Source: Verrucomicrobiota bacterium
GTDB lineage: Bacteria > Verrucomicrobiota > Kiritimatiellia > CAIQIC01 > JAGNIJ01
Direction: 5' to 3'
Assembly: GCA_043803015.1 (NCBI GenBank)
Contig: JAZDKK010000062.1
Span: 391 to 64,390, forward strand
Length of the DNA stretch: 64,000 nt
Position 1 is the first letter of the stretch, and each line of letters starts with the position of its first letter. Shown in pieces: positions 9,419-38,548 of the stretch. The notes beneath the pieces were generated by a model that was given only the letters and a program-made list of their open reading frames with translations, was not told where the DNA came from and did not search any database. The translations under genes were made by a program, and so were the position numbers.

Positions 9419-10447
9419 ATGAAGGTGACCATCAAGGATCTCGCCGCGGAGTTCGGCGTAGACAAGGCAACCGCTTCCCGCGCCCTGCGAGGCAAGCCCG
9501 GCGTCAGTTCGGAACTGCGCGACAGAATCGTCGCCGGAGCCAAGACCCTCGGCTTCTTCCCCAACGCGCAGGCGCGAAGTCTCGCCACAGGCAAGACGGA
9601 AACCCTCGCCCTCGTCTTCTGCGACGAGACCAGCTGGTTCTTCGAGAACCCCTTCTACTCCGGCGTCCTCGCGGGCATCGCGTCCGAGTCCAACGCCCGC
9701 GGGTTCACCCTGGCCTTCCACTCCCTCGCGTCGGCGAAGTTCCGGCCGGGAGATTCGCTGCCGAAGGAAATACGCGGACACCGGGCCGACGGCTTCCTCT
9801 TCGTCGGCGACCAGAACGACGCGCTCATCACGGCCGTTTCCGAGGCGCGATATCCCGTCGTGCTCGTGGATCACTCCGTGCCCGGCGCGGACCTCCCGGC
9901 GGTCACCGTGGCCAATACGAGCGGCGCGCGGTCGGCTGTCGAATACCTCATTTCACTGGGCCACCGACGAATCGGGTTCGTCAGCGGATGGCTGAAGAGC
10001 CCGAGCTATCGCGAACGATTGGCCGGTTACAAGGCGGCCTTGCAGGCCCACCGATGCGATCGCGATCCTTCCCTGGTTCGGACCCACGGGAAGGATGCGG
10101 GCTACGAGGGCATGCGTGAGCTGCTCGCTCTCCCTTCGCCGCCCACCGCGGTCTTCGCGGCCAACGATGTCCTCGCGGTCACCGCCGTCGCGGCCATCCA
10201 TCACAAGGGGCTGCGCATTCCTCAGGACGTCAGCATCATGGGGTTCGACGACTCGCGCTGTGCCACCGACACGTGGCCGCCGCTGACCACGATGCGTGTC
10301 GACAAGAGACTCATGGGACAGCTTGCCGTGCGCAAGCTCATCGGCTTGATCCAGCGCAAAGACGCCGGACCGCGTCAGACGCCTCTGGACGTCAACTTGG
10401 TGATCCGCGATTCCACGGGGCCCAACCTCACACGGCCCAACGCCTGA
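9419..10447 (+). CDS. LacI family transcriptional regulator
   Basis: The N-terminal HTH is MKVTIKDLAAEFGVDKATASRALRGKPGVSSELRDRIVAGAKTLGFFPNAQARSL. It is followed by a periplasmic-binding-protein-like sugar-binding core (342 aa). GGAGG lies upstream of the ATG. Confidence 0.92.
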   Translation: MKVTIKDLAAEFGVDKATASRALRGKPGVSSELRDRIVAGAKTLGFFPNAQARSLATGKTETLALVFCDETSWFFENPFYSGVLAGIASESNARGFTLAFHSLASAKFRPGDSLPKEIRGHRADGFLFVGDQNDALITAVSEARYPVVLVDHSVPGADLPAVTVANTSGARSAVEYLISLGHRRIGFVSGWLKSPSYRERLAGYKAALQAHRCDRDPSLVRTHGKDAGYEGMRELLALPSPPTAVFAANDVLAVTAVAAIHHKGLRIPQDVSIMGFDDSRCATDTWPPLTTMRVDKRLMGQLAVRKLIGLIQRKDAGPRQTPLDVNLVIRDSTGPNLTRPNA

Positions 10448-10625
10448 CGCGGATCGGGCTGGCCGCCTCTTGGTTGTGGACGCATTCATCGGCCCTTCAC
10501 CTCTCTCGGTAACCTCCGCGGTTCTTTCGCGGCCGGCCACAACGACCTCCAGCGCGCCTGCCGCAACTGCAACTTCCTCAAGGTCTGCCCGAAGTGGACG
10601 CGCCAGCGCCTTCGCCCTCCGGGCT

Positions 10626-10658
10626 TCCGCCGTCGCCGACGGCTTCGGCGGACAAGTC
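10626..10658. repeat. REP-like hairpin module (TCCGCC-N15-GGCGGA followed by CAAGTC), in inverted orientation
   Basis: The reverse complement reads gacttgTCCGCCgaagccgtcggcgacGGCGGAag. This matches the module gacttgTCCGCCgtagccttggcgaaGGCGGAag in the element at 11896..12010. A degenerate copy of the CCCCTCC region follows at about 10700..10725. Confidence 0.5.
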
Positions 10659-10733
10659 GGCGAGGCAGGCAAGATGCCCATGCGGAGAGCCTCCGGTCCC
10701 CGCGTCCTCCCTCTTTGGGGCTGATCACGGGAA

Positions 10734-10785
10734 CTTGACAATACTTCCACGTCGTACTTGACAATTACCTGACAATAAGTATTGT
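10734..10785 (+). promoter_or_regulatory. Upstream copy of a 40-bp module (CTTGACAAT-N14-CTTGACAAT-N2-CCTGAC), overlapping a putative TTGACA-N16-TATTGT promoter
   Basis: CTTGACAAT starts at 10734 and 10757 (23-bp spacing), and CCTGAC is at 10768. TTGACA (10758..10763) is 16 nt from TATTGT (10780..10785). Only 6 nt separate the -10 box from ATG 10792 and there is no Shine-Dalgarno sequence, so the mRNA may be leaderless. Confidence 0.45.
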
Positions 10786-10791
10786 GGCGAC

Positions 10792-11835
10792 ATGAAGGCC
10801 AGCCAATCGATTCTCGCCCGCCTCCGCCGGGGCCCCGCCAGCGGGTCCGGGCTGGCCCGGGCGCTTGGCGTGTCGCGCCAGGCCGTCCACGAACACCTGA
10901 AAGCGCTGTCCGGACACGGGCTGATCGTCAAGGAGGGGGTGACGCGCGGCGCCCGATACCGGATCGCCGGCCGAAGGGAGCAAGGAAGCGCCGTCCGCAC
11001 GGTCAGGCGGCTTCTCGATCTTCACGGCCTGGAAGAGGACCGCGTGTTCGACGAGATCAGCACGGCCCTGGGGCTGGCGCGCCGGACGGGGGAGCGCGCG
11101 CAGGAGATTGCCCAGTACGCCTTTTCGGAGCTGCTCAACAACGCCATCGAGCATTCGCGGTCGCCGAAGGGCCTGGTCGAGGCCCGACTCGACCCCTACG
11201 CCTGCTCCTTCGTGATCCGCGACTATGGAATCGGCGTATTCCAGTCCATGGCCGCGAAGTTCATGCTCCAGGATGAGAGCGCAGCGCTGTTCGAGATCCT
11301 GAAGGGCAAGCGGACCACGGCACCGGAGAGGCACAGCGGCGAGGGCATCTTCTTCACCTCCAAGGCGGTGGATCGCATCCTGTTTCGCTCCCACCGCCTC
11401 CGGCTGGAGATTGACAACCTGCACCCCGACGTCGTCGTCGAGGAGGCGCGTCTTCTCAAGGGCACCGAGGTCCGCTTCTTCGTGGCGCGACACGCAAGGC
11501 GGCGCCTGGGAGACGTCTTCGCGAAGTTCGCGCCGGAGGAATTCGACTTCCGCTTCGAGAAGACGCGCGTCCTGGTTCGCCTTCTCGGGAACGACTACGT
11601 ATCGCGCTCGGAAGCCCGGAGGCTCCTGGCCGGGCTGGACCGGTTCAAGGAGATCGAGCTCGATTTCGAGGGCGTGCAGCGACTGGGCCAGGGGTTTGCG
11701 GACGAGATCTTCCGCGTCTTCCGGCGCGCCCATCCGGGGATCGCCCTCCGCGCGGTCAACGTCCGCCCGCCGCTCCAGGCGATGATCCGGCACAGCCTTG
11801 ACAATACTGTTTCATCTAGCTTGACAATATCCTGA
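10792..11835 (+). CDS. Fusion protein: winged-HTH + GHKL/HATPase_c (RsbW/SpoIIAB-like) + C-terminal STAS-like DUF4325 domain
   Basis: HTH: ILARLRRGPASGSGLARALGVSRQAVHEHLKALSGHGLIVKEG. ATPase N-box ELLNNAIEHS, G1 box IRDYGIGV, G2 box HSGEGIFF. The C-terminus LDFEGVQRLGQGFADEIFRVFRRAHPG is typical of DUF4325. 347 aa. Confidence 0.8.
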   Translation: MKASQSILARLRRGPASGSGLARALGVSRQAVHEHLKALSGHGLIVKEGVTRGARYRIAGRREQGSAVRTVRRLLDLHGLEEDRVFDEISTALGLARRTGERAQEIAQYAFSELLNNAIEHSRSPKGLVEARLDPYACSFVIRDYGIGVFQSMAAKFMLQDESAALFEILKGKRTTAPERHSGEGIFFTSKAVDRILFRSHRLRLEIDNLHPDVVVEEARLLKGTEVRFFVARHARRRLGDVFAKFAPEEFDFRFEKTRVLVRLLGNDYVSRSEARRLLAGLDRFKEIELDFEGVQRLGQGFADEIFRVFRRAHPGIALRAVNVRPPLQAMIRHSLDNTVSSSLTIS

Positions 11836-11836
11836 C
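11797..11836 (+). repeat. Downstream copy of the 40-bp CTTGACAAT-N14-CTTGACAAT-N2-CCTGAC module
   Basis: CTTGACAAT starts at 11797 and 11820 (23-bp spacing) and CCTGAC is at 11831, the same internal spacing as the upstream copy. It overlaps the last codons and the stop of the 10792..11835 gene. Confidence 0.6.
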
Positions 11837-11895
11837 GAAATCGCCCGCCGCCGGCGCGATTTCCTTGAGGTGGACCTGAAGTGGACGCAGGGGTG

Positions 11896-12010
11896 ACCCA
11901 CCCCTCCCGTCCCCTCCGGGGAGCGGACGCCGATGTGCCGGTCCCCTCCCTCGGAGGGGTGCCCGACTTGTCCGCCGTAGCCTTGGCGAAGGCGGAAGGG
12001 CGGGGTGGGT
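11896..12010 (+). repeat. REP/MITE-like element, copy A (115 bp): 9-bp terminal inverted repeats ACCCACCCC / GGGGTGGGT, a CCCCTCC-N3-GGAGGGG hairpin, and a GTAG-containing hairpin module
   Basis: The 5' end acccacccctcccgtcccctccg is identical in copies A, B and C. Hairpin cccctccctcggagggg; module gacttgtccgccGTAGccttggcgaaggcgga; 3' end ggggtgggt. Confidence 0.8.
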
Positions 12011-12023
12011 AGAGAGGCACCGT

Positions 12024-12875
12024 ATGCGCATGAAGATCGTTCGAAGGTTCGCGCTCTTCGCGGCCGCCGCGGGCATCGCCCTGCTGACGGCAGGACACGC
12101 CGCGGCGCAGACGACGACGATCAGGGTCGCCCTCTGCCAGATCTTCTGCGTTGACGGCGACCGCGCCGGCAATTTCGTCCGGATGGAGAACGCCCTGGCC
12201 GAGGCCAGGCAGAAAGGCGCCGACCTCGCGTGCTTTCCCGAATGCGCCGTGCTGGGATGGGTCAATCCCGACGCCCACCGGCGCGCGTACCCGATCCCCG
12301 GCCCGGACTCGGATCGCCTGTGCGAGCTGGCAAAGAAATACCGGATGCATGTGTGCGCCGGATTGGACGAGAAGGACGGGACCAACCTGTACGACACCGC
12401 CGTGCTCATCAGCGACGAGGGCAAGCTCCTGCTCAAGCACCACAAGATGCACAACCTCGACAACGACCACCTGATCGAGCCGCCCTACACGTCGGGGCAC
12501 GACATCCGGGCCGTGGACACGAAGCTCGGCAGAATCGGCCTCCTGATCTGTGCCGACACGTTCATTGACGACTTCCTGAGAAAGATGGCGGATTTGAAAC
12601 CGGGCCTCGTCCTGGTTCCGTACGGCTGGGTCGGAGCGGAGAACGATTGGCCCGGCCACGGCCAGAATCTGGTCAACGTCGTCCGGCACGCAGCCGAGGT
12701 CATCGGCGCGCCGGTGGTCGGCACGGACTCCGTGGGGGAAGTCACGCACGGCCCGTGGGCGGGGCGCACCTACGGCGGCTTCAGCAACGTTTCAGACCGG
12801 CGCGGCCAGACCTTGGCGGTCGCCAAGGACCGGGACCGGGACGTCCTGATCGTCCCGATCGAGGTGGGGCGATAG
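12024..12875 (+). CDS. Carbon-nitrogen hydrolase (nitrilase superfamily) with an N-terminal signal peptide
   Basis: Signal MRMKIVRRFALFAAAAGIALLTAGHAAA. Glu-Lys-Cys triad contexts: ACFPECAV, LLLKHHKMH, GLLICADTF. 283 aa. The start could be ATG 12024 or 12030. Confidence 0.8.
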   Translation: MRMKIVRRFALFAAAAGIALLTAGHAAAQTTTIRVALCQIFCVDGDRAGNFVRMENALAEARQKGADLACFPECAVLGWVNPDAHRRAYPIPGPDSDRLCELAKKYRMHVCAGLDEKDGTNLYDTAVLISDEGKLLLKHHKMHNLDNDHLIEPPYTSGHDIRAVDTKLGRIGLLICADTFIDDFLRKMADLKPGLVLVPYGWVGAENDWPGHGQNLVNVVRHAAEVIGAPVVGTDSVGEVTHGPWAGRTYGGFSNVSDRRGQTLAVAKDRDRDVLIVPIEVGR

Positions 12876-13041: not shown

Positions 13042-14991
13042 CTACCGCTCCACGCCGACGCGGTAGAAGCGGTAGAGGGCCGGGGCTGCGGGATCGGTGT
13101 ACGTGTTCTCCGGCGGAGTGGCCGGAATGTTGGTGGCTAGCGGCCAAAACTCGGCAACAGGCACCAGGTTGCTTCCGCGGCCGACGGCATACCACCGATT
13201 CGTCACGCTGAGCCACCGGACCAGCACGTCTCGGTTCGTGCTTCGCCCGGTCCACTTCACCCGGAAGAACGATGACCCGAGCACCGGGTCCGTTCCCGCC
13301 CACACTTCATCCCCGTCGCCTTGTGTATCGCCGTCGGTATCCGGGTTCGTCCAGTCCGTGCCGTACTTCGCCCGCTCATCGTAATCGCTGAGCCCGTCGG
13401 AATCGGCATCCGCCCACGGATTCCCATGTTCGTAGCAGCCCATGTCGAACTCTGCCGTGCCGCTGTTGTTGCCGTCGAGCGGCCGCTCCGTCCCCTCGAG
13501 GTCGTTCGTGATCCCGAAGGCCGCCAGGTTCGTGCCGGTGTCGATGCAGGGCGAGTTGGTCAGCAGGTGGTAGTTGCCCGCCGCGGCGTTCACGAACTGT
13601 GGATCATTCGTGATGTTACCGGTGCCGCCGGGATCGGTGGATGTGCAGCTATACGAAAAGCCAGAACCAGCCCAATTGAAGCACTGGTTGAAGTAGCTGA
13701 TCACGTTCACAACGGCGCTGTTGCTGTAGGCTTCAACGCCCGCGACGGACGGGGGAGGCTCGCACGTGTTGCTGGCCACCGTCGAGTTCTGCAGCACACT
13801 GTTCTCGCAATGGACTCCTCCGTTGAGGTCGTCGACCACCAGGCAGTTGACCGCGCGGCTCGCGCCGGCGAGACCCAAGCCGCCGCCCGTGCCCGAAAAC
13901 GCGACGGAGAATGCGAACCGCCTGAGCGCACCGTTTCCTCTTATGCTGCAATCCCTCACGCTGCACTGGTTGACCGCGTAGACTCCGCCCCCGCAGCAAT
14001 CACCCCATGGCGGGGTTCCTGGTCCAGTTGCCCCTCCAGCCATGGTCGAGTTGCTGACGACCGAGCAACTCGTGACGGCGGACGTGTTGCAGGCATAGAC
14101 TCCGCCGCCGAGCCCATCGCCGCCACTCCCCGTGCCCGTCGCGCCCCCGCCCGGTCCGTCGGCGTTCTGCCCGTACGCCGTGTTGTTGGAGACAGCACAG
14201 GTCTCTAGGCGGCTTCCGTTGGACAGATAGACTCCGCCGCCGAACCCGCTGCCACCGTCAAGCTTACTCGACGTGCTGGCGTAGCCTGCGGCGCCGCCAT
14301 TCCCGCTGTTGCCCCTGATCGTGCAGAGCCTCACAACGCTCGAATTGTCGGCGAACACCCCGCCCCCGTGGCCGTCCCCGCCGTTTCCTCCAGGTGTGGC
14401 CCACATCGGGTCCCCCCCGCCGTACCCTCCGTTGGCGGTGTTGCCCGCCACGTCACAGCGCTCCACGAAACTGCCATGATCGCAGTAGACCCCGCCGCCG
14501 TACCCCGGATCGCCGTGATCGCCATAGTAGGCCCAATTCTCGCCATTGGCTGAGTTGCTGACGATCAGGCAATTCCGAACTGCCGACCCGTGATCGGCGA
14601 AAACGCCGCCTCCTCCGCTGGTGTTGCGTCCGTGCGTGACGGTGAAGCCGTCGATCAGCGCATTCGAATGGTTCAGGTAGAAGCAGCGATTCGACCAACT
14701 TCCGTCCACGGTCGTGTGCGCCGCGCCCCAGGCGCTCCGAACGGTTGCGCCGTTCGTGACTACGACCTGGGTGAAAACCCGATAGTACCCGTCGGTGACC
14801 ACGACGCTCTCTCCCTCCGTCGCCGCGTTGATCGCCTGCTGGATGTTCGTCGCAGCCGTCACCCAGTTGGTGTACGGCGGAACGGGGTTCGTGGAGGCGA
14901 GGTCAACGTAATGAGTGTCGGCAGAGGCAAGGCCCAGGAAGAGCGGCAAGAACAGCAGACCCAACGACCACCTGACAGCCCGTGTGTGCAT
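13042..14991 (-). CDS. Secreted right-handed beta-helix protein with thrombospondin-type-3-like Asp-rich repeats and a conserved C-terminal domain ending YRFYRVGVER
   Basis: I prefer the start at internal ATG 14991 (MHTRAVRWSLGLLFLPLFLGLASA signal peptide) over the track start at 15087. It has GGG(V/I)(Y/F)-type parallel beta-helix repeats. DADSDGLSDYDE...NPDTDGDTQGDGDE is calcium-binding-like. It is a paralog of 15118..16473. Confidence 0.8.
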   Translation of the reverse strand: MHTRAVRWSLGLLFLPLFLGLASADTHYVDLASTNPVPPYTNWVTAATNIQQAINAATEGESVVVTDGYYRVFTQVVVTNGATVRSAWGAAHTTVDGSWSNRCFYLNHSNALIDGFTVTHGRNTSGGGGVFADHGSAVRNCLIVSNSANGENWAYYGDHGDPGYGGGVYCDHGSFVERCDVAGNTANGGYGGGDPMWATPGGNGGDGHGGGVFADNSSVVRLCTIRGNSGNGGAAGYASTSSKLDGGSGFGGGVYLSNGSRLETCAVSNNTAYGQNADGPGGGATGTGSGGDGLGGGVYACNTSAVTSCSVVSNSTMAGGATGPGTPPWGDCCGGGVYAVNQCSVRDCSIRGNGALRRFAFSVAFSGTGGGLGLAGASRAVNCLVVDDLNGGVHCENSVLQNSTVASNTCEPPPSVAGVEAYSNSAVVNVISYFNQCFNWAGSGFSYSCTSTDPGGTGNITNDPQFVNAAAGNYHLLTNSPCIDTGTNLAAFGITNDLEGTERPLDGNNSGTAEFDMGCYEHGNPWADADSDGLSDYDERAKYGTDWTNPDTDGDTQGDGDEVWAGTDPVLGSSFFRVKWTGRSTNRDVLVRWLSVTNRWYAVGRGSNLVPVAEFWPLATNIPATPPENTYTDPAAPALYRFYRVGVER

Positions 14992-15061
14992 CCGCGCTCC
15001 CATTCCCCATTTCCATCGTACCCCCCCCGCCCGGCCGAAGAAAGCATGCAAAGCCGCGTTC

Positions 15062-15107
15062 TTCCAATCCTTGGAAAAACGGCCCAATAAACTTCCAATG
15101 TTTGGAA
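15062..15107. repeat. Second pair of TTCCAA-N3-TTGGAA palindromes with starts 31 bp apart
   Basis: TTCCAAtccTTGGAA (15062..15076) and (C)TTCCAAtgtTTGGAA(G) (15093..15107). The pair ends 11 bp from the stop of the 15118..16473 gene and lies upstream of the 14991 start. Confidence 0.6.
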
Positions 15108-32372: not shown

Positions 32373-33220
32373 CCGTGGGCCCTCCTGGGTTTCGCGGCCC
32401 TCGGGCTGTCACGCTGCTCCAGCATGTCGCGGAGCCGGAGGACGGTGGCATTCTGAATCTGCCGCACGCGCTCGCGCGTGATGTGAAACCGTTTGCCGAC
32501 CGTCTCCAGCGTCTCGGGCTTGACCCCGCGCAGGCCGTACCGGAACTTCAGGATGTCCCGCTCGCGGCGGCCGAGGCGGTCCAGCAGGCCCTCGATCTCG
32601 GCACGCAGCTGCCGGTCGTTGATGTCGTCGTACGGCGTCCGGCCCTTCTCGTCGCCCACGATATCGCCCAGTTCGCCCCGGTTGTCGTCTCCGATCGGCG
32701 CATCGAGCGAGGCGGGCCTCAGCGAGAGCGTCTGCCACTGGGACACCGTGCGCGCAGGGACGCCCAGTTTCTTGGCCAGTTCCTCGTCGGTCGGCTCGCG
32801 GCCCGTCTTCTGGGTCAGGGCACGCTGGGTTCTCCGCATCTTGGAAATCTTGTCCACGAGATGGGCCGGGAGCCGGATGGTCTTGCTCTGGTTGGCGAGC
32901 GCGCGCTTGATGGCCTGCTTGATCCACCACGCGGCGTACGTGCTCAGCTTCCCGCCCTTCTTCGGGTCAAAGCGCACCACGGCCTTCATCAGCCCGATGT
33001 TGCCCTCGGAAATCAGGTCGAGGAGCGGCAGGCCGTAGCGGGCGTAGTCGTGGGCGATCTTGACGACGAGGCGAAGGTTGGCCCGGATCATCAGCTGGCG
33101 CGCTTCCTCGTCGCCCCGCTTGATGCGCTTGGCCAGCTGGACTTCCTGCTGCCGAGTCAGCAGGGCGGTCTGGCCGATCTCCCGCAGGTAAATCCGTATG
33201 CCTCTGTCTTCTGTTTCCAT
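32369..33220 (-). CDS. RNA polymerase sigma factor, RpoD/SigA-like (sigma-70 regions 1.2-4, no region 1.1)
   Basis: YLREIGQTALLTRQQEVQLAKRI (region 1.2), DLISEGNIGLMKAVVRFDPKKGGKLSTYAAWWIKQAIKRALANQSKTIRLPAHL (region 2), HITRERVRQIQNATVLRLR (region 4.2). Its TGA overlaps the apt ATG (ATGA at 32372..32369). Confidence 0.9.
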   Translation of the reverse strand: METEDRGIRIYLREIGQTALLTRQQEVQLAKRIKRGDEEARQLMIRANLRLVVKIAHDYARYGLPLLDLISEGNIGLMKAVVRFDPKKGGKLSTYAAWWIKQAIKRALANQSKTIRLPAHLVDKISKMRRTQRALTQKTGREPTDEELAKKLGVPARTVSQWQTLSLRPASLDAPIGDDNRGELGDIVGDEKGRTPYDDINDRQLRAEIEGLLDRLGRRERDILKFRYGLRGVKPETLETVGKRFHITRERVRQIQNATVLRLRDMLEQRDSPRAAKPRRAHG

Positions 33221-33334
33221 AGAGAAACACGCCGACCAGGGACCGGCCGTTCAGAGCTTAGACAGGGTACTGCATCTCCTGTTCGCCGAATCTTGCCAGA
33301 CCTTTTTCATAAAGCAAGTCCCACAGACAACGCA

Positions 33335-33363
33335 GGCTCCGCCCCGGAGCCCGGGGCGGAGCC
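33335..33363 (-). terminator. Putative intrinsic terminator downstream of ppdK: perfect 13-bp GC stem with a 3-nt loop
   Basis: GGCTCCGCCCCGG-agc-CCGGGGCGGAGCC lies 29 bp past the ppdK stop. On the minus strand it is followed by the moderately U-rich ugcguugucugug. Confidence 0.55.
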
Positions 33364-33391
33364 TGCCCATGAAACCGCGCTGGGCCGGCGG

Positions 33392-36166
<2,775 letters not shown>

Positions 36167-36298
36167 GGTCGTGTTGCTCCTGTCGTTCGCGTGTCTGTTG
36201 ATCGTTGGGTCGGATTGGAAGAGCGGACATGCTAGCAGACGCCCCCCGGGTGTCAAGCGCCCGAACCCGTGGGCTCGGAGGGCTGTTCCGTGGGAGCG

Positions 36299-38272
36299 CT
36301 AGTGGGGCGGCAGCTTGGTTGTCGCTTCCACGGCAACGATGCAGATATCGTCGGAAATCGGCTCGTAGCCCACGAAATTGGAGATGGCCTCCATCATCCC
36401 ATCCACCATCTCCTTGGCGCTCTTGAACATCATGCTCTGGAGCGTCTGTTCCATGCGCGCGATCCCGAATTCCTCGCCCCGCGTGTTCCGGGCCTCGTAC
36501 ACGCCGTCGGTGAACAGGATGAACACGTCCCCGTCCACCAGCCGGCTGTACCCCCCCGTGTAGTTCTCGCTGGGGAGGAGGCCCAGCGCAGTGCCCCGCG
36601 GCATCGGCACTTCCAGCCGCGCCACCCGCTGTGCGCTGCGCCGGATCTGGAACGGCGCGGGATGGCCCGCCGACGAGTACGTAGCCACGCGGGCTGTCGT
36701 GTCGGCCACGAAGTAGAAGCAGGAGGCATAGAGCGGCGTCGGCACGCTCCGCAGCAGGCCGCAGAAAAGCTTGTTCATCTCGGTGAGAAAATGGCGCGCG
36801 TTGCGGCCCTGCGGAGCCAGGTCGTCGATGAGCGTCCGGATGATCGCGGTGATCAGCGCGCTGCGCGTGCCGTGGCCCATGACGTCGGCAATGAACACGC
36901 CCGCGCAGTCCGGCGCCAGCGTCAGGATGTTGTAGAAGTCGCCGCCCAGGGCCAGCGCCGGCTCGTACCGGTGGTAGAATTCAAGCCGAAGCCGGCCGTC
37001 CACGTGCACGGCCGGGATCTTCGGGTAGGCGCGGTCGATGTACGCCTGCTGGAAGTCGCGGGCCAGATTCAGGTCCCGCTGCATCTCGAACGTCTGGGTC
37101 GTGTACTCGTCCTGAAGGTCCTGGAGAACGCGGTGAAGCCACTTCTGCAGTTCGCGCTGCAGGGGCGTCGCCTCGGGCAGGGCGCGCTTCGCAGGATCTT
37201 TGGACATCGGTTGGGGGATGACGGCGGACCTGCCGAGCGCCGTCCGCAGGATCCAGTCGCCAGCCTCCAGGAGCTCCGCCTGCGGGCCTATGATTTCCCG
37301 CGCGAAGAATCCGCGGAAATACCTGGCGCAAAGCAATGCAATAAGGACACTTAGGGCAAACACCGCCGCCGCCAAACCGTAGATTCCGAACGGCAGGAGC
37401 GCCTCGTGTTTGATCACCACGATCCACACGGGCTGACCCCAGGAAATGTCCGCGCCGAGGGGCCGCGCCAAGTAGCGCACACCGGCATACCATCCCCGCT
37501 CTTCCTCGGCTTGTCGCAGCCGGGCCGCCAGGCCCTTGATCACCTGCTCCCCCGCTTCGCCGGCCCCGACTGTCCATGCCCCACCCATCACCATCACCGC
37601 CGTGTCGCCCATCCTGGCGCTCGAGACCAGGTCCCTCGTCAAGCGGTCCATGTCCAGTTGCTCACACAGGACCCCTCTCAGGGCCGACGCCTCGCCGGCT
37701 TGGCCCAGGCCCAGCGCCAGCCCCATCAGGCGTCCGCTGGACATGCCGTCGCTCACCACCTCGCCCGGCCCGCGCATCTTCGCCAGCACCCACCACGGCT
37801 TGTCGCTGCAGTCGGCCGGTTGAGTCTTCCCTGACGACGCCAGCACGACGCCCTCGTGGTCCGTCAGCAGGAGGCCGCTGATGAAGGCCCGGCTGGCTTG
37901 CGCCCGCTGAAGAATTTCCGCGGCCGGATTGTTGAGCGCGCTCGCGGCGAGGGCGTTGCCTTGGTTGAGCACCGGTCCTTTTGGTTGGATGCCGGCGCCC
38001 GCTCCCGACCCCGCGGCCGCCGACCTTGGAGCCCCCACCCCGAGAAGCTCCTCCGTGGCGGACAGGCTGCCCAGCACACGCAGGCGGCCGATCTCGGTCG
38101 CCAGCCGCTGGTCCAACTCGCTCCTGACCTTCAGCTCGACGTTCTCGAGCTCAGACCAGTGTTTCCGGTTGAAGACGTACCAGGCCGCGACATTGATCCC
38201 GAGCAGCAACAGGGTGAGCGGCACGATCGCGAAGAGCGTCAAGCTGCGGTTGAGCCGGCTTATCAGGTTCAT
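36299..38272 (-). CDS. Membrane-anchored sensor protein phosphatase, PP2C/SpoIIE (RsbU-like) family
   Basis: Start ATG 38272 (MNLISRLNRSLTLFAIVPLTLLLLGINVAAWYVF, transmembrane segment). A second transmembrane segment follows (LLPFGIYGLAAAVFALSVLIALLCA). C-terminal PP2C motifs: LGGDFYNILTL, VFIADVMGHGTRSA, FILFTDGVYEARN, DDICIVAVE. Confidence 0.85.
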   Translation of the reverse strand: MNLISRLNRSLTLFAIVPLTLLLLGINVAAWYVFNRKHWSELENVELKVRSELDQRLATEIGRLRVLGSLSATEELLGVGAPRSAAAGSGAGAGIQPKGPVLNQGNALAASALNNPAAEILQRAQASRAFISGLLLTDHEGVVLASSGKTQPADCSDKPWWVLAKMRGPGEVVSDGMSSGRLMGLALGLGQAGEASALRGVLCEQLDMDRLTRDLVSSARMGDTAVMVMGGAWTVGAGEAGEQVIKGLAARLRQAEEERGWYAGVRYLARPLGADISWGQPVWIVVIKHEALLPFGIYGLAAAVFALSVLIALLCARYFRGFFAREIIGPQAELLEAGDWILRTALGRSAVIPQPMSKDPAKRALPEATPLQRELQKWLHRVLQDLQDEYTTQTFEMQRDLNLARDFQQAYIDRAYPKIPAVHVDGRLRLEFYHRYEPALALGGDFYNILTLAPDCAGVFIADVMGHGTRSALITAIIRTLIDDLAPQGRNARHFLTEMNKLFCGLLRSVPTPLYASCFYFVADTTARVATYSSAGHPAPFQIRRSAQRVARLEVPMPRGTALGLLPSENYTGGYSRLVDGDVFILFTDGVYEARNTRGEEFGIARMEQTLQSMMFKSAKEMVDGMMEAISNFVGYEPISDDICIVAVEATTKLPPH

Positions 38273-38548
38273 CGTTCGTCCCTGTGTCCCAGATCCTTGA
38301 TGCCTCCGACTAGCCCGCGGCCCCATGCTGCCCTGGAACTCATCACGGGCTCCAGCCGTCCATCTATCCTACACTCCAGCTCGGCCCATTGTATGCGGCG
38401 TGGCCGCCGCCCGCCATGCTTTTCCGCACCGAGCTGCTTACCGGACGGGTTGCGTCTTGTAGGGAAATCGGAAAAAGGCCACTTCGTGGTTGCGCGGGCC
38501 TCCTCGCCGGTCTAAGCGTAGTCTGGAGTTTTTCGCCTCGGAGCTCTC

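Follow-up and report, generated by a model that had tools for sequence, protein, structure and literature searches.

A one-gene wHTH–GHKL–STAS-like cassette with triple-box repeats at both ends in a Verrucomicrobiota contig: a candidate autorepressed switch with the apparent behaviour of an insertion

Introduction

What might a gene do that joins a DNA-binding domain, a kinase-like module and a STAS-like domain in one polypeptide, and that carries the same repeat module at both of its ends? The question is raised by a gene of a Verrucomicrobiota bacterium (NCBI GenBank assembly GCA_043803015.1, contig JAZDKK010000062.1) that encodes a 347-aa protein with a winged helix–turn–helix (wHTH), a GHKL ATPase and a STAS-like DUF4325 domain. 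It lies in a stretch of 64,000 nucleotides, referred to below as the window; positions are counted from its first letter, and Table 1 lists the features.

In our reading, which we judge slightly likelier to be right than wrong, positions 10735–11839 form a self-contained one-gene cassette: an autorepressed one-component switch in which a triple box at the 3′ end serves as an auxiliary operator. The cassette also behaves as an insertion and is apparently mobile, a result that goes beyond a preliminary description of this DNA made from the sequence alone.

The protein family is annotated but uncharacterised. The identical protein in NCBI, from a Verrucomicrobiota metagenome-assembled genome (MAG), is called a “DUF4325 domain-containing protein”, and in the literature on DUF4325 and on STAS, GHKL and wHTH proteins we found no description of this architecture, of the triple-box leaderless layout or of the cassette behaviour. 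A word-indexed search returned more than 6,000 matches. We offer a testable model for a family that has so far borne only this name and comprises about 900 clusters (904 at 50% identity, E ≤ 1e-30, nearly all of 335–352 aa), with at least 589 of its loci in species-representative genomes drawn from many phyla. DNA of 80 homologous loci was read, all from MAGs and from many phyla; counts of triple boxes by a strict pattern and of flanking repeats were taken over 67 loci.

5′ triple box and promoter

A 40-bp module of two boxes had been reported at both gene ends. It is present twice with identical spacing, at 10734–10773 and 11797–11836; the two 40-mers are 75% identical overall and agree at 24 specified positions. 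The two-box layout was incomplete, a third box having been overlooked in either copy (CTGACAAT upstream, CTGACGAA downstream). Both triple boxes follow the layout TTGACAAT-N15-TTGACAAT-N3-CTGACAAT, with offsets of 23 and 11 bp between successive box starts. The 64 kb contain four exact copies of TTGACAAT, all within the two modules, against an expectation of 0.56; 1 of 100 shuffles reached four.

The upstream copy overlaps a TTGACA-N16-TATTGT promoter, the sole sigma-70-like site in 10300–12300. As described earlier, its −10 box ends 6 nt before the ATG, leaving no room for a leader or a Shine–Dalgarno sequence. This geometry is conserved in homologs: most of the 80 loci conform to the consensus GG-TTGACAAT-N15/16 (AT-rich)-GG-TTGACAAT-N3-TTGACAAT-N3-TATAAT-N6-ATG, and box 3 ends 15–19 nt before the ATG in 30 of the 41 loci that have a triple box and an in-frame ATG. 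The conserved spacing implies that box 2 is the −35 hexamer, that box 3 fills the spacer and that transcription should start at about the A of the ATG. The leaderless start proposed for this gene thus agrees with the arrangement in its homologs, and the mRNA is probably leaderless.

3′ triple box inside the gene end

The second module does not flank the gene, as had been supposed, being instead its last 13 codons and stop codon. Its first box, CTT-GAC-AAT, is read as L-D-N; the same 9-mer recurs 23 nt further on in another frame and is read as (S)L-T-I. A 3′ triple box in the same orientation as the 5′ one is found in 30 homolog loci. In 16 of them the stop codon comes between boxes 1 and 2, in seven inside box 3 (tTGAcaat), in three after box 3, in two before box 1, and in one each within box 1 and box 2; in L015 the entire element is located 123 nt beyond the stop codon. 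Because the stop falls at six different positions relative to the boxes, the 3′ triple box is conserved as DNA and not as protein. A DNA site would here override coding constraint, with a proposed operator placed in the last codons of a gene and the same 9-mer accommodated in two frames.

Other accounts of the 3′ module were considered and rejected. A conserved C-terminal peptide (“DN...LTIS” or “VDN...LTIS”) is a by-product, as the stop position varies and the boxes persist in non-coding DNA. As a promoter for the neighbour the module lacks a −10 box (mean best score 2.2 of 6, compared with 3.9 of 6 at the 5′ copies), and the orientation of the next downstream gene is not consistent, with 12 loci having it on the + strand and 10 on the − strand. 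A promoter for a tandem paralog was likewise discarded, there being one copy per locus and no tandem arrays in the 80 loci.

One 5′ and one 3′ triple box occur together in 22 of the 67 loci; four have two tandem 5′ triple boxes and no 3′ one. A second operator that can be placed on either side fits cooperative or looped repression. In 16 other loci a single 5′ triple box stands alone, so the auxiliary operator is not obligatory.

Association of the boxes with the gene family

The preliminary description had made the case depend on whether gene and CTTGACAAT repeats stay associated in homologs, which they do. With the strict pattern, at least one triple box is present at the gene in 44 of 67 loci, and only three occur elsewhere in 1.06 Mb. 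A double box directly precedes the gene in 59 instances and marks its 3′ end in 23, without exception on the + strand; elsewhere only eight were found in about 560 kb.

Several clades carry altered boxes, TTTACAAT in L059, L063, L065, L066, L071 and L072 and CTGTCAAT in L061, and where a 3′ copy exists (L059, L065) the boxes are changed at both gene ends. The recognition helix of these clades reads SRQAA[AHN] or SRQTVL, against SRQA[VLI]N otherwise. Such co-variation of helix and box strengthens the case for the proposed autoregulation. The two copies at a locus also resemble each other in their spacers: in 25 of 26 loci both have a spacer of the same length, 15 or 16 nt, and the spacer between boxes 2 and 3 is shared within the locus in 9 of 26, compared with 9% between loci. 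Shared spacers suggest either that one binding protein selects both copies jointly or that the copies have been homogenised.

A related subfamily from metagenomes (L108, L110, L114, L116, L119, L128, L177; 37–42% identity) has the helix SRQY[VIL]N, and its promoter shows two TTGACAAT boxes, two TTTACAAT boxes and then the ATG; two box specificities could thus be combined at one promoter. Among predicted prophage contigs in IMG/VR (L081–L106) only distant relatives are found, at 31–39% identity. In two of these, L081 and L082, two TTTACAAAAA repeats immediately precede the ATG.

Domain composition of the protein

The proposed fusion of wHTH, GHKL ATPase and STAS-like domain is borne out by both profile and structure comparison. 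Pfam places a winged HTH at aa 6–57 (HTH_20/HTH_11 at aa 6–46), above the curated cut-off, HATPase_c_2 at aa 101–199 (33.1 bits, cut-off 27.4) and DUF4325 at aa 275–324 (45.3 bits, cut-off 23), so that the protein has the DUF4325 + HATPase_c_2 architecture and exceeds the curated cut-offs of both models. An AlphaFold2 model, for which 119 homologs were aligned, has a predicted local distance difference test (pLDDT) score of 84 and a predicted template modelling (pTM) score of 0.76. With Foldseek, the top PDB matches to its GHKL part are SpoIIAB structures (1til, 1l0o, 1th8; target TM-score, i.e., template modelling score, about 0.7); the other top matches are STAS proteins (4xs5, SpoIIAA 1h4z, RsbV) and ArsR/SmtB wHTH repressors.

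The ATPase motifs are not degenerate. The N-box (ExxxNxxxH), G1 (DxGxG) and G2 (GxG) are all present together with the GHKL (Bergerat) fold, and E113, N116, N117, H121, D144, G146, G148, G183 and G185 are invariant in the 119 sequences; ATP binding and catalysis are predicted properties.

The idea that a kinase is joined here to its own STAS substrate is not supported. In the register of the model, the position matching the STAS phospho-acceptor is G299-Q300-G301, at the N-terminus of helix 300–313, which follows strand 287–291. In the homolog alignment aa 299–301 are nearly invariant, aa 297 varies among R, S, A and T, and no conserved Ser or Thr is found nearby. An invariant S271-R-S273-E motif caps, in the model, helix 1 of the STAS-like domain and not helix 2. 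An hhalign comparison of the domain with SpoIIAA gave no alignment. On the strength of the model, the STAS-like domain is more likely a sensor or an interaction surface than a kinase substrate; since its phospho-acceptor position has no conserved Ser or Thr, we liken it to the internal sensor STAS of CapK, a protein discussed below.

Proposed autorepressed switch

We infer that the protein reads the boxes and regulates its own gene. The wHTH would bind the boxes head-to-tail and occlude the −35 hexamer and the spacer, keeping expression low. The 3′ triple box, or in certain relatives a second upstream one, would act as an auxiliary operator that strengthens repression by cooperative binding or looping. 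The GHKL and STAS-like domains may together form a sensor, in which a ligand or the ATP state alters oligomerisation and leads to release of the DNA, by analogy with CapK. A candidate output is a kinase or anti-sigma-like action on a host or invader protein. As the signals match the sigma-70 consensus, operator, promoter and start site can be tested directly in Escherichia coli.

Several observations weigh against such a switch. What selective value there would be in a repressor acting on itself alone is not evident; no output was identified, and the 64-kb window holds no further box targets. The STAS-like domain has no canonical phospho-serine, as judged from the secondary-structure register of the model. 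In 16 loci a single 5′ triple box is present without a second copy, and the co-variation of helix and box is confounded by phylogeny. The IMG/VR relatives have ordinary Shine–Dalgarno leaders (GGAGG) and no triple box, so the triple-box layout is a feature of a large clade and not of the whole family.

The cassette as an insertion

The cassette in the window is bracketed by a 47-nt direct repeat whose two copies, DR-L and DR-R, are 72% identical and start 1287 nt apart. An 11-mer GAAGTGGACGC noticed earlier at 10591 and 11878 is indeed present, yet it has no standing of its own and belongs to this repeat, a duplicated 3′ end of a nuclease gene. The nuclease gene itself persists in the window as a PDDEXK_1 pseudogene (Cas4/RecB-like, with a Cys-rich C-terminus) at 10448–10601, in the frame of the AAG at 10592; only about the last 20 codons (..NDLQRACRNCNFLKVCPKW) remain, and the stop codon is lost.

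Two related loci, L227 and L228, whose proteins are 76% and 75% identical to that of the window, have an intact 306-aa PDDEXK_1 gene that ends (...ACRRCNFLKVCPKW*) in the left repeat copy; the right copy begins no more than 10 nt past box 3. The end of L227 overlaps the start of L229, from the same sample, which gives the order nuclease, cassette, CN-hydrolase, and the right side of L227/L229 is syntenic with the window. A search for an empty site corresponding to the window's own locus found none: L227/L229 have the same cassette–hydrolase order, and L230 has another upstream gene.

Flanking repeats were then counted at 400 nt on each side of the gene, with the boxes masked and a threshold of at least 30 bits. 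Direct repeats were detected at the same locus in 10 of 67 cases, compared with 1 of 67 for an inverted control and 2 of 61 for a shifted control. They are 20–123 nt long and 70–95% identical, and their sequence differs between loci; in the ten strongest cases the copies lie 1208–1456 nt apart. The repeat of L038 is the 3′ end of a tRNA-Leu(caa) gene, and that of L080 comprises the first ~40 codons of the downstream gene. Adjacency to tRNA genes was rejected as a general rule, being seen in only 3 of 60 loci, and the window contains no tRNA.

Paralogs within one genome delimit the unit. Between L038 and L044 the identity is 95% over a segment that runs from box 1 to 10 nt beyond the stop codon, and between L001 and L004 it is 86% over one that likewise begins at box 1 and reaches about 115 nt beyond the stop codon; in both pairs homology is confined to these segments. 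As a side observation, the cassette of L001 and L004 stands amid arrays of 7-nt repeats, with nnnYTAC units on both sides (2240–2420 and 3540–3640 in L001, 3860–3940 and 5060–5230 in L004), and L011 has at least nine copies of (GAGGACT)n upstream of 3940. These arrays resemble the short tandemly repeated repetitive (STRR) sequences of cyanobacteria.

Presence and absence can be compared in Nitrospira. In L039 and L042 the cassette is situated between DUF488 and BT1 transporter genes; L232 has 23 nt in its place and L233 about 80 nt, both being empty sites, and L233, whose BT1 protein is 96% identical to that of L039, lacks DUF488 as well. No duplication was found at the cassette junctions of L039. 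The slot between the BT1 and TfoX_N genes varies among these close relatives (L231, L232, L233, L039, L042), being empty (about 80 nt) or holding DUF488 alone, DUF488 with the cassette, or an 80-aa open reading frame (ORF), which gives it the look of a small hot spot where genes are gained and lost.

Taken from these comparisons, the cassette behaves as an insertion and is apparently mobile. The long imperfect repeats, which preserve coding sequence, resemble the products of attachment (att)-type or homology-driven integration. It is no insertion sequence: a transposase fold is lacking, the ends are direct repeats and the flanking duplications have no fixed length, varying from 12 to 123 nt. 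The span between the flanking repeats holds only the cassette gene and no integrase or transposase. A discrete, duplication-bracketed and variably present cassette without a recombinase would, if it moves itself, be a new kind of mobile element. We advance, as a rather doubtful proposal, that there is a class of minimal mobile elements of about 1.2–1.46 kb that insert at gene ends with long target duplications and are moved by their own protein or by host recombination acting on the repeats. Such elements, each made up of the gene and its two triple boxes, would carry universal signals for expression (a sigma-70 promoter of consensus type and a leaderless start) and spread across bacterial phyla.

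A stronger form of this proposal, which we consider unlikely, makes the triple boxes the recognition ends of such an element and the protein its mobility factor, acting directly or by recruiting host recombination, with regulation being secondary. It draws on most of what was described above, namely the excess of direct repeats over both controls and their uniform spacing; repeats that are gene ends (the tRNA of L038, the nuclease of the window, L227 and L228, and a 5′ end in L080); paralogs that share the unit alone; the empty sites among close Nitrospira; and 5′ and 3′ boxes that evolve in concert. The neighbourhood supplies no alternative agent: among 122 flanking proteins searched with Pfam and PADLOC, mostly housekeeping, no integrase, transposase, sigma factor or phosphatase recurs. 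In all-against-all ORF clustering of the 80 loci the cassette gene is the only one common to all, the next family occurring in four.

However, the protein has neither a nuclease nor a recombinase fold, and the flanking repeats do not coincide with the boxes but lie 1–230 nt further out. Only about 15% of loci have detectable repeats, which are missing at the L039 junctions, and where long and imperfect they fit integrase-type or homology-driven integration in trans. A tblastn search for the family in 72,556 plasmids and 50,697 phages gave no match. The GC content of the window copy equals that of its surroundings, so this copy is not a recent arrival, which also speaks against the boxes as mobility ends.

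Comparison with known systems

For this set of domains the only literature match is the CapK/CapS system with the related VapKSC toxin–antitoxin. CapK, of the order HTH-STAS-GHKL, is switched on by single-stranded DNA (ssDNA) and phosphorylates Ser54 of CapS, a STAS-wHTH protein; the ssDNA is bound in the STAS-GHKL groove of CapK (W68). CapS represses its own promoter and binds a second, downstream promoter, and for both CapK/CapS and VapKSC a response to ssDNA and a protective effect against phage are described (Chambers et al., EMBO J 2026, PMC13373217). The DUF4325 family had earlier been linked to PIN.4/VapC genes (PMC5499597).

The cassette resembles CapK/CapS in its domain types (HTH, SpoIIAB-like GHKL and STAS), in being a portable unit and in a wHTH component with a site at its own promoter and a second one downstream, binding by the cassette protein being a proposal. 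It differs in that CapK/CapS are two proteins, whereas the cassette encodes a single chain ordered wHTH-GHKL-STAS. At the place on STAS helix 2 where CapS carries an invariant phospho-serine, the cassette protein has G-Q-G in the register of the model. The CapS sites are TTAA palindromes, unlike the three direct TTGACAAT repeats. While capK is always followed by capS, and usually by an immune operon, the cassette has no capS-like partner, downstream operon or conserved neighbour. No similarity at the sequence level to the solved CapS, VapS or SpoIIAA chains was detected. By this comparison the cassette protein falls outside the CapK, CapS and classical partner-switching families, though it plausibly works like them. 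The CapK/CapS principle would then extend to the same parts in a single chain with no canonical phospho-serine.

The likeness raises the possibility, of low probability in our view, that the gene by itself makes up a defence or stress module like those of the CapK/VapK type, in which a signal derived from phage or damage, such as ssDNA, lifts autorepression and the GHKL domain, then overproduced, phosphorylates or sequesters a protein of host or phage, leading to growth arrest. This is compatible with an autorepressed switch and differs from it only in the proposed output. The domain types shared with CapK/CapS and VapKSC favour it, as do the portable stand-alone unit with its universal expression signals, the several copies in some genomes and a few AbiEii or AAA-type neighbours. 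These defence-like neighbours are sporadic, though, among mostly housekeeping genes with no enrichment of defence islands. The protein shows no effector domain, and PADLOC 2.0 matched it only to generic HTH models (Csa3/CasR, E 2e-7 or weaker) and to no defence family; the missing sequence similarity to the solved CapS and VapS chains counts against a defence module as well. Rfam gave no match near threshold.

The layout of the proposed switch invites comparison with phage lambda, in which cI lies between the tripartite operators OR and OL, the PRM transcript is leaderless and the upstream operator overlaps the promoter of cI itself. The likeness concerns layout alone: a repressor gene with a leaderless transcript is enclosed by two operators of three sites each, of which the upstream one covers its own promoter and the second is proposed to act by long-range cooperation. 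The proteins are unrelated, the cassette has direct repeats instead of palindromes and a 3′ operator in the coding end, and there are no divergent lytic promoters.

As an inserted unit, the cassette is similar to att-flanked non-autonomous islets in its imperfect direct repeats of a target-gene end and its discrete size of 1.2–1.46 kb. Unlike them, it has no integrase inside or nearby, its targets vary by locus and its cargo is always one regulator-like gene.

It is quite improbable that the boxes are mere promoter parts, i.e., redundant −35 or UP-like elements bound by no dedicated protein, with the 3′ copy a relic of tandem duplication or a result of coding constraint. TTGACA is the sigma-70 −35 consensus, and a search of metagenomes for solo double boxes, uninformative in itself, gave 82 matches to a pattern with 16 specified bases, of which 11 stand beside a family gene and most are unrelated to the family, as expected by chance. 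On the other side, 8 nt are conserved, which is more than the hexamer, and the spacer accommodates box 3. The 3′ copy is retained whatever the reading frame and also where the DNA is non-coding; the 80 loci show no tandem arrays of the gene, and variant boxes change at both ends together (L059, L065).

Six short metagenome contigs (L124, L185, L143, L175, L138, L125) have double or multiple TTGACAAT boxes with no detectable family gene, L124 and L185 with an upstream box-1-like site in addition. Excision may have left them behind as solo triple boxes, or the matches may be due to chance.

Classical partner switching, in which a GHKL anti-sigma kinase and a phosphorylated STAS-like antagonist, reset by the PP2C phosphatase of the window, would control a sigma factor, is very improbable. 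The structure is matched best by SpoIIAB, RsbW, SpoIIAA and RsbV, conservation extends to the N, G1 and G2 boxes, and the SpoIIE/PP2C gene pointed out earlier does exist (36299..38326, − strand), but the acceptor position is G-Q-G, the two domains share one chain with each other and with a wHTH, no gene for a sigma factor or phosphatase stands beside the cassette gene here or in the 80 homolog loci, the phosphatase lies 24 kb off with nothing to link it, and a lone gene spread by horizontal transfer is unlike SpoIIAB–SpoIIAA and RsbW–RsbV.

Other features of the window

The coordinates of the cassette and of the elements around it are collected in Table 1.

Table 1. Features at the cassette locus, in window coordinates (., no strand).
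Feature	Position	Strand	Remarks
DR-L, left direct repeat	10555..10601	+	Remnant of the 3′ end of a PDDEXK_1 nuclease gene; encodes ..ACRNCNFLKVCPKW
Inverted repeat, left arm (REP-like)	10610..10660	.	Pairs with 11963–12012, 75–95% complementarity
5′ triple box, proposed operator	10735..10776	+	Box 1 TTGACAAT 10735–10742; box 2 TTGACAAT 10758–10765; box 3 CTGACAAT 10769–10776; same layout upstream of homologs in many phyla
Sigma-70-type promoter	10758..10785	+	−35 TTGACA 10758–10763 (in box 2), N16, −10 TATTGT 10780–10785
wHTH-GHKL-STAS-like gene	10792..11835	+	347 aa; first start codon past the upstream stop
wHTH	10792–10971	+	~aa 1–60
SpoIIAB-like GHKL ATPase	11029–11487	+	~aa 80–232
STAS-like DUF4325 domain	11506–11796	+	~aa 239–335
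3′ triple box, proposed auxiliary operator	11798..11839	+	Overlaps last 13 codons and stop; box 1 11798–11805; box 2 11821–11828; box 3 CTGACGAA 11832–11839, contains the TGA stop 11833–11835
DR-R, right direct repeat	11842..11888	+	Degenerate copy of the nuclease-gene 3′ end
GC-rich hairpin/REP-like element	11896..12012	.	Stem 11896–11912 with 11994–12010; includes right arm 11963–12012; outside the cassette

The elements resembling repetitive extragenic palindromes (REP) that had been noted on the outer sides of the gene do form a 50-nt inverted pair around the cassette region, whose core occurs only three times in the window; their association with the gene is probably incidental. They were rejected as termini of the element: the right arm lies outside DR-R, and relatives have different hairpins there. 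Related Verrucomicrobiota contigs show another REP-like unit, GCCGCAAAGAGGCGCAAG, at equivalent places, where assemblies break (the L227/L229 junction).

For two further large ORFs of the window, 13042–15087 (−, 681 aa) and 32375–36235 (+, 1286 aa), Pfam gave no match at E ≤ 1e-5. The 681-aa product, Gly/Asn-rich and of repeat-like character, begins with a signal-like segment, and a homolog is encoded at the same position in L229.

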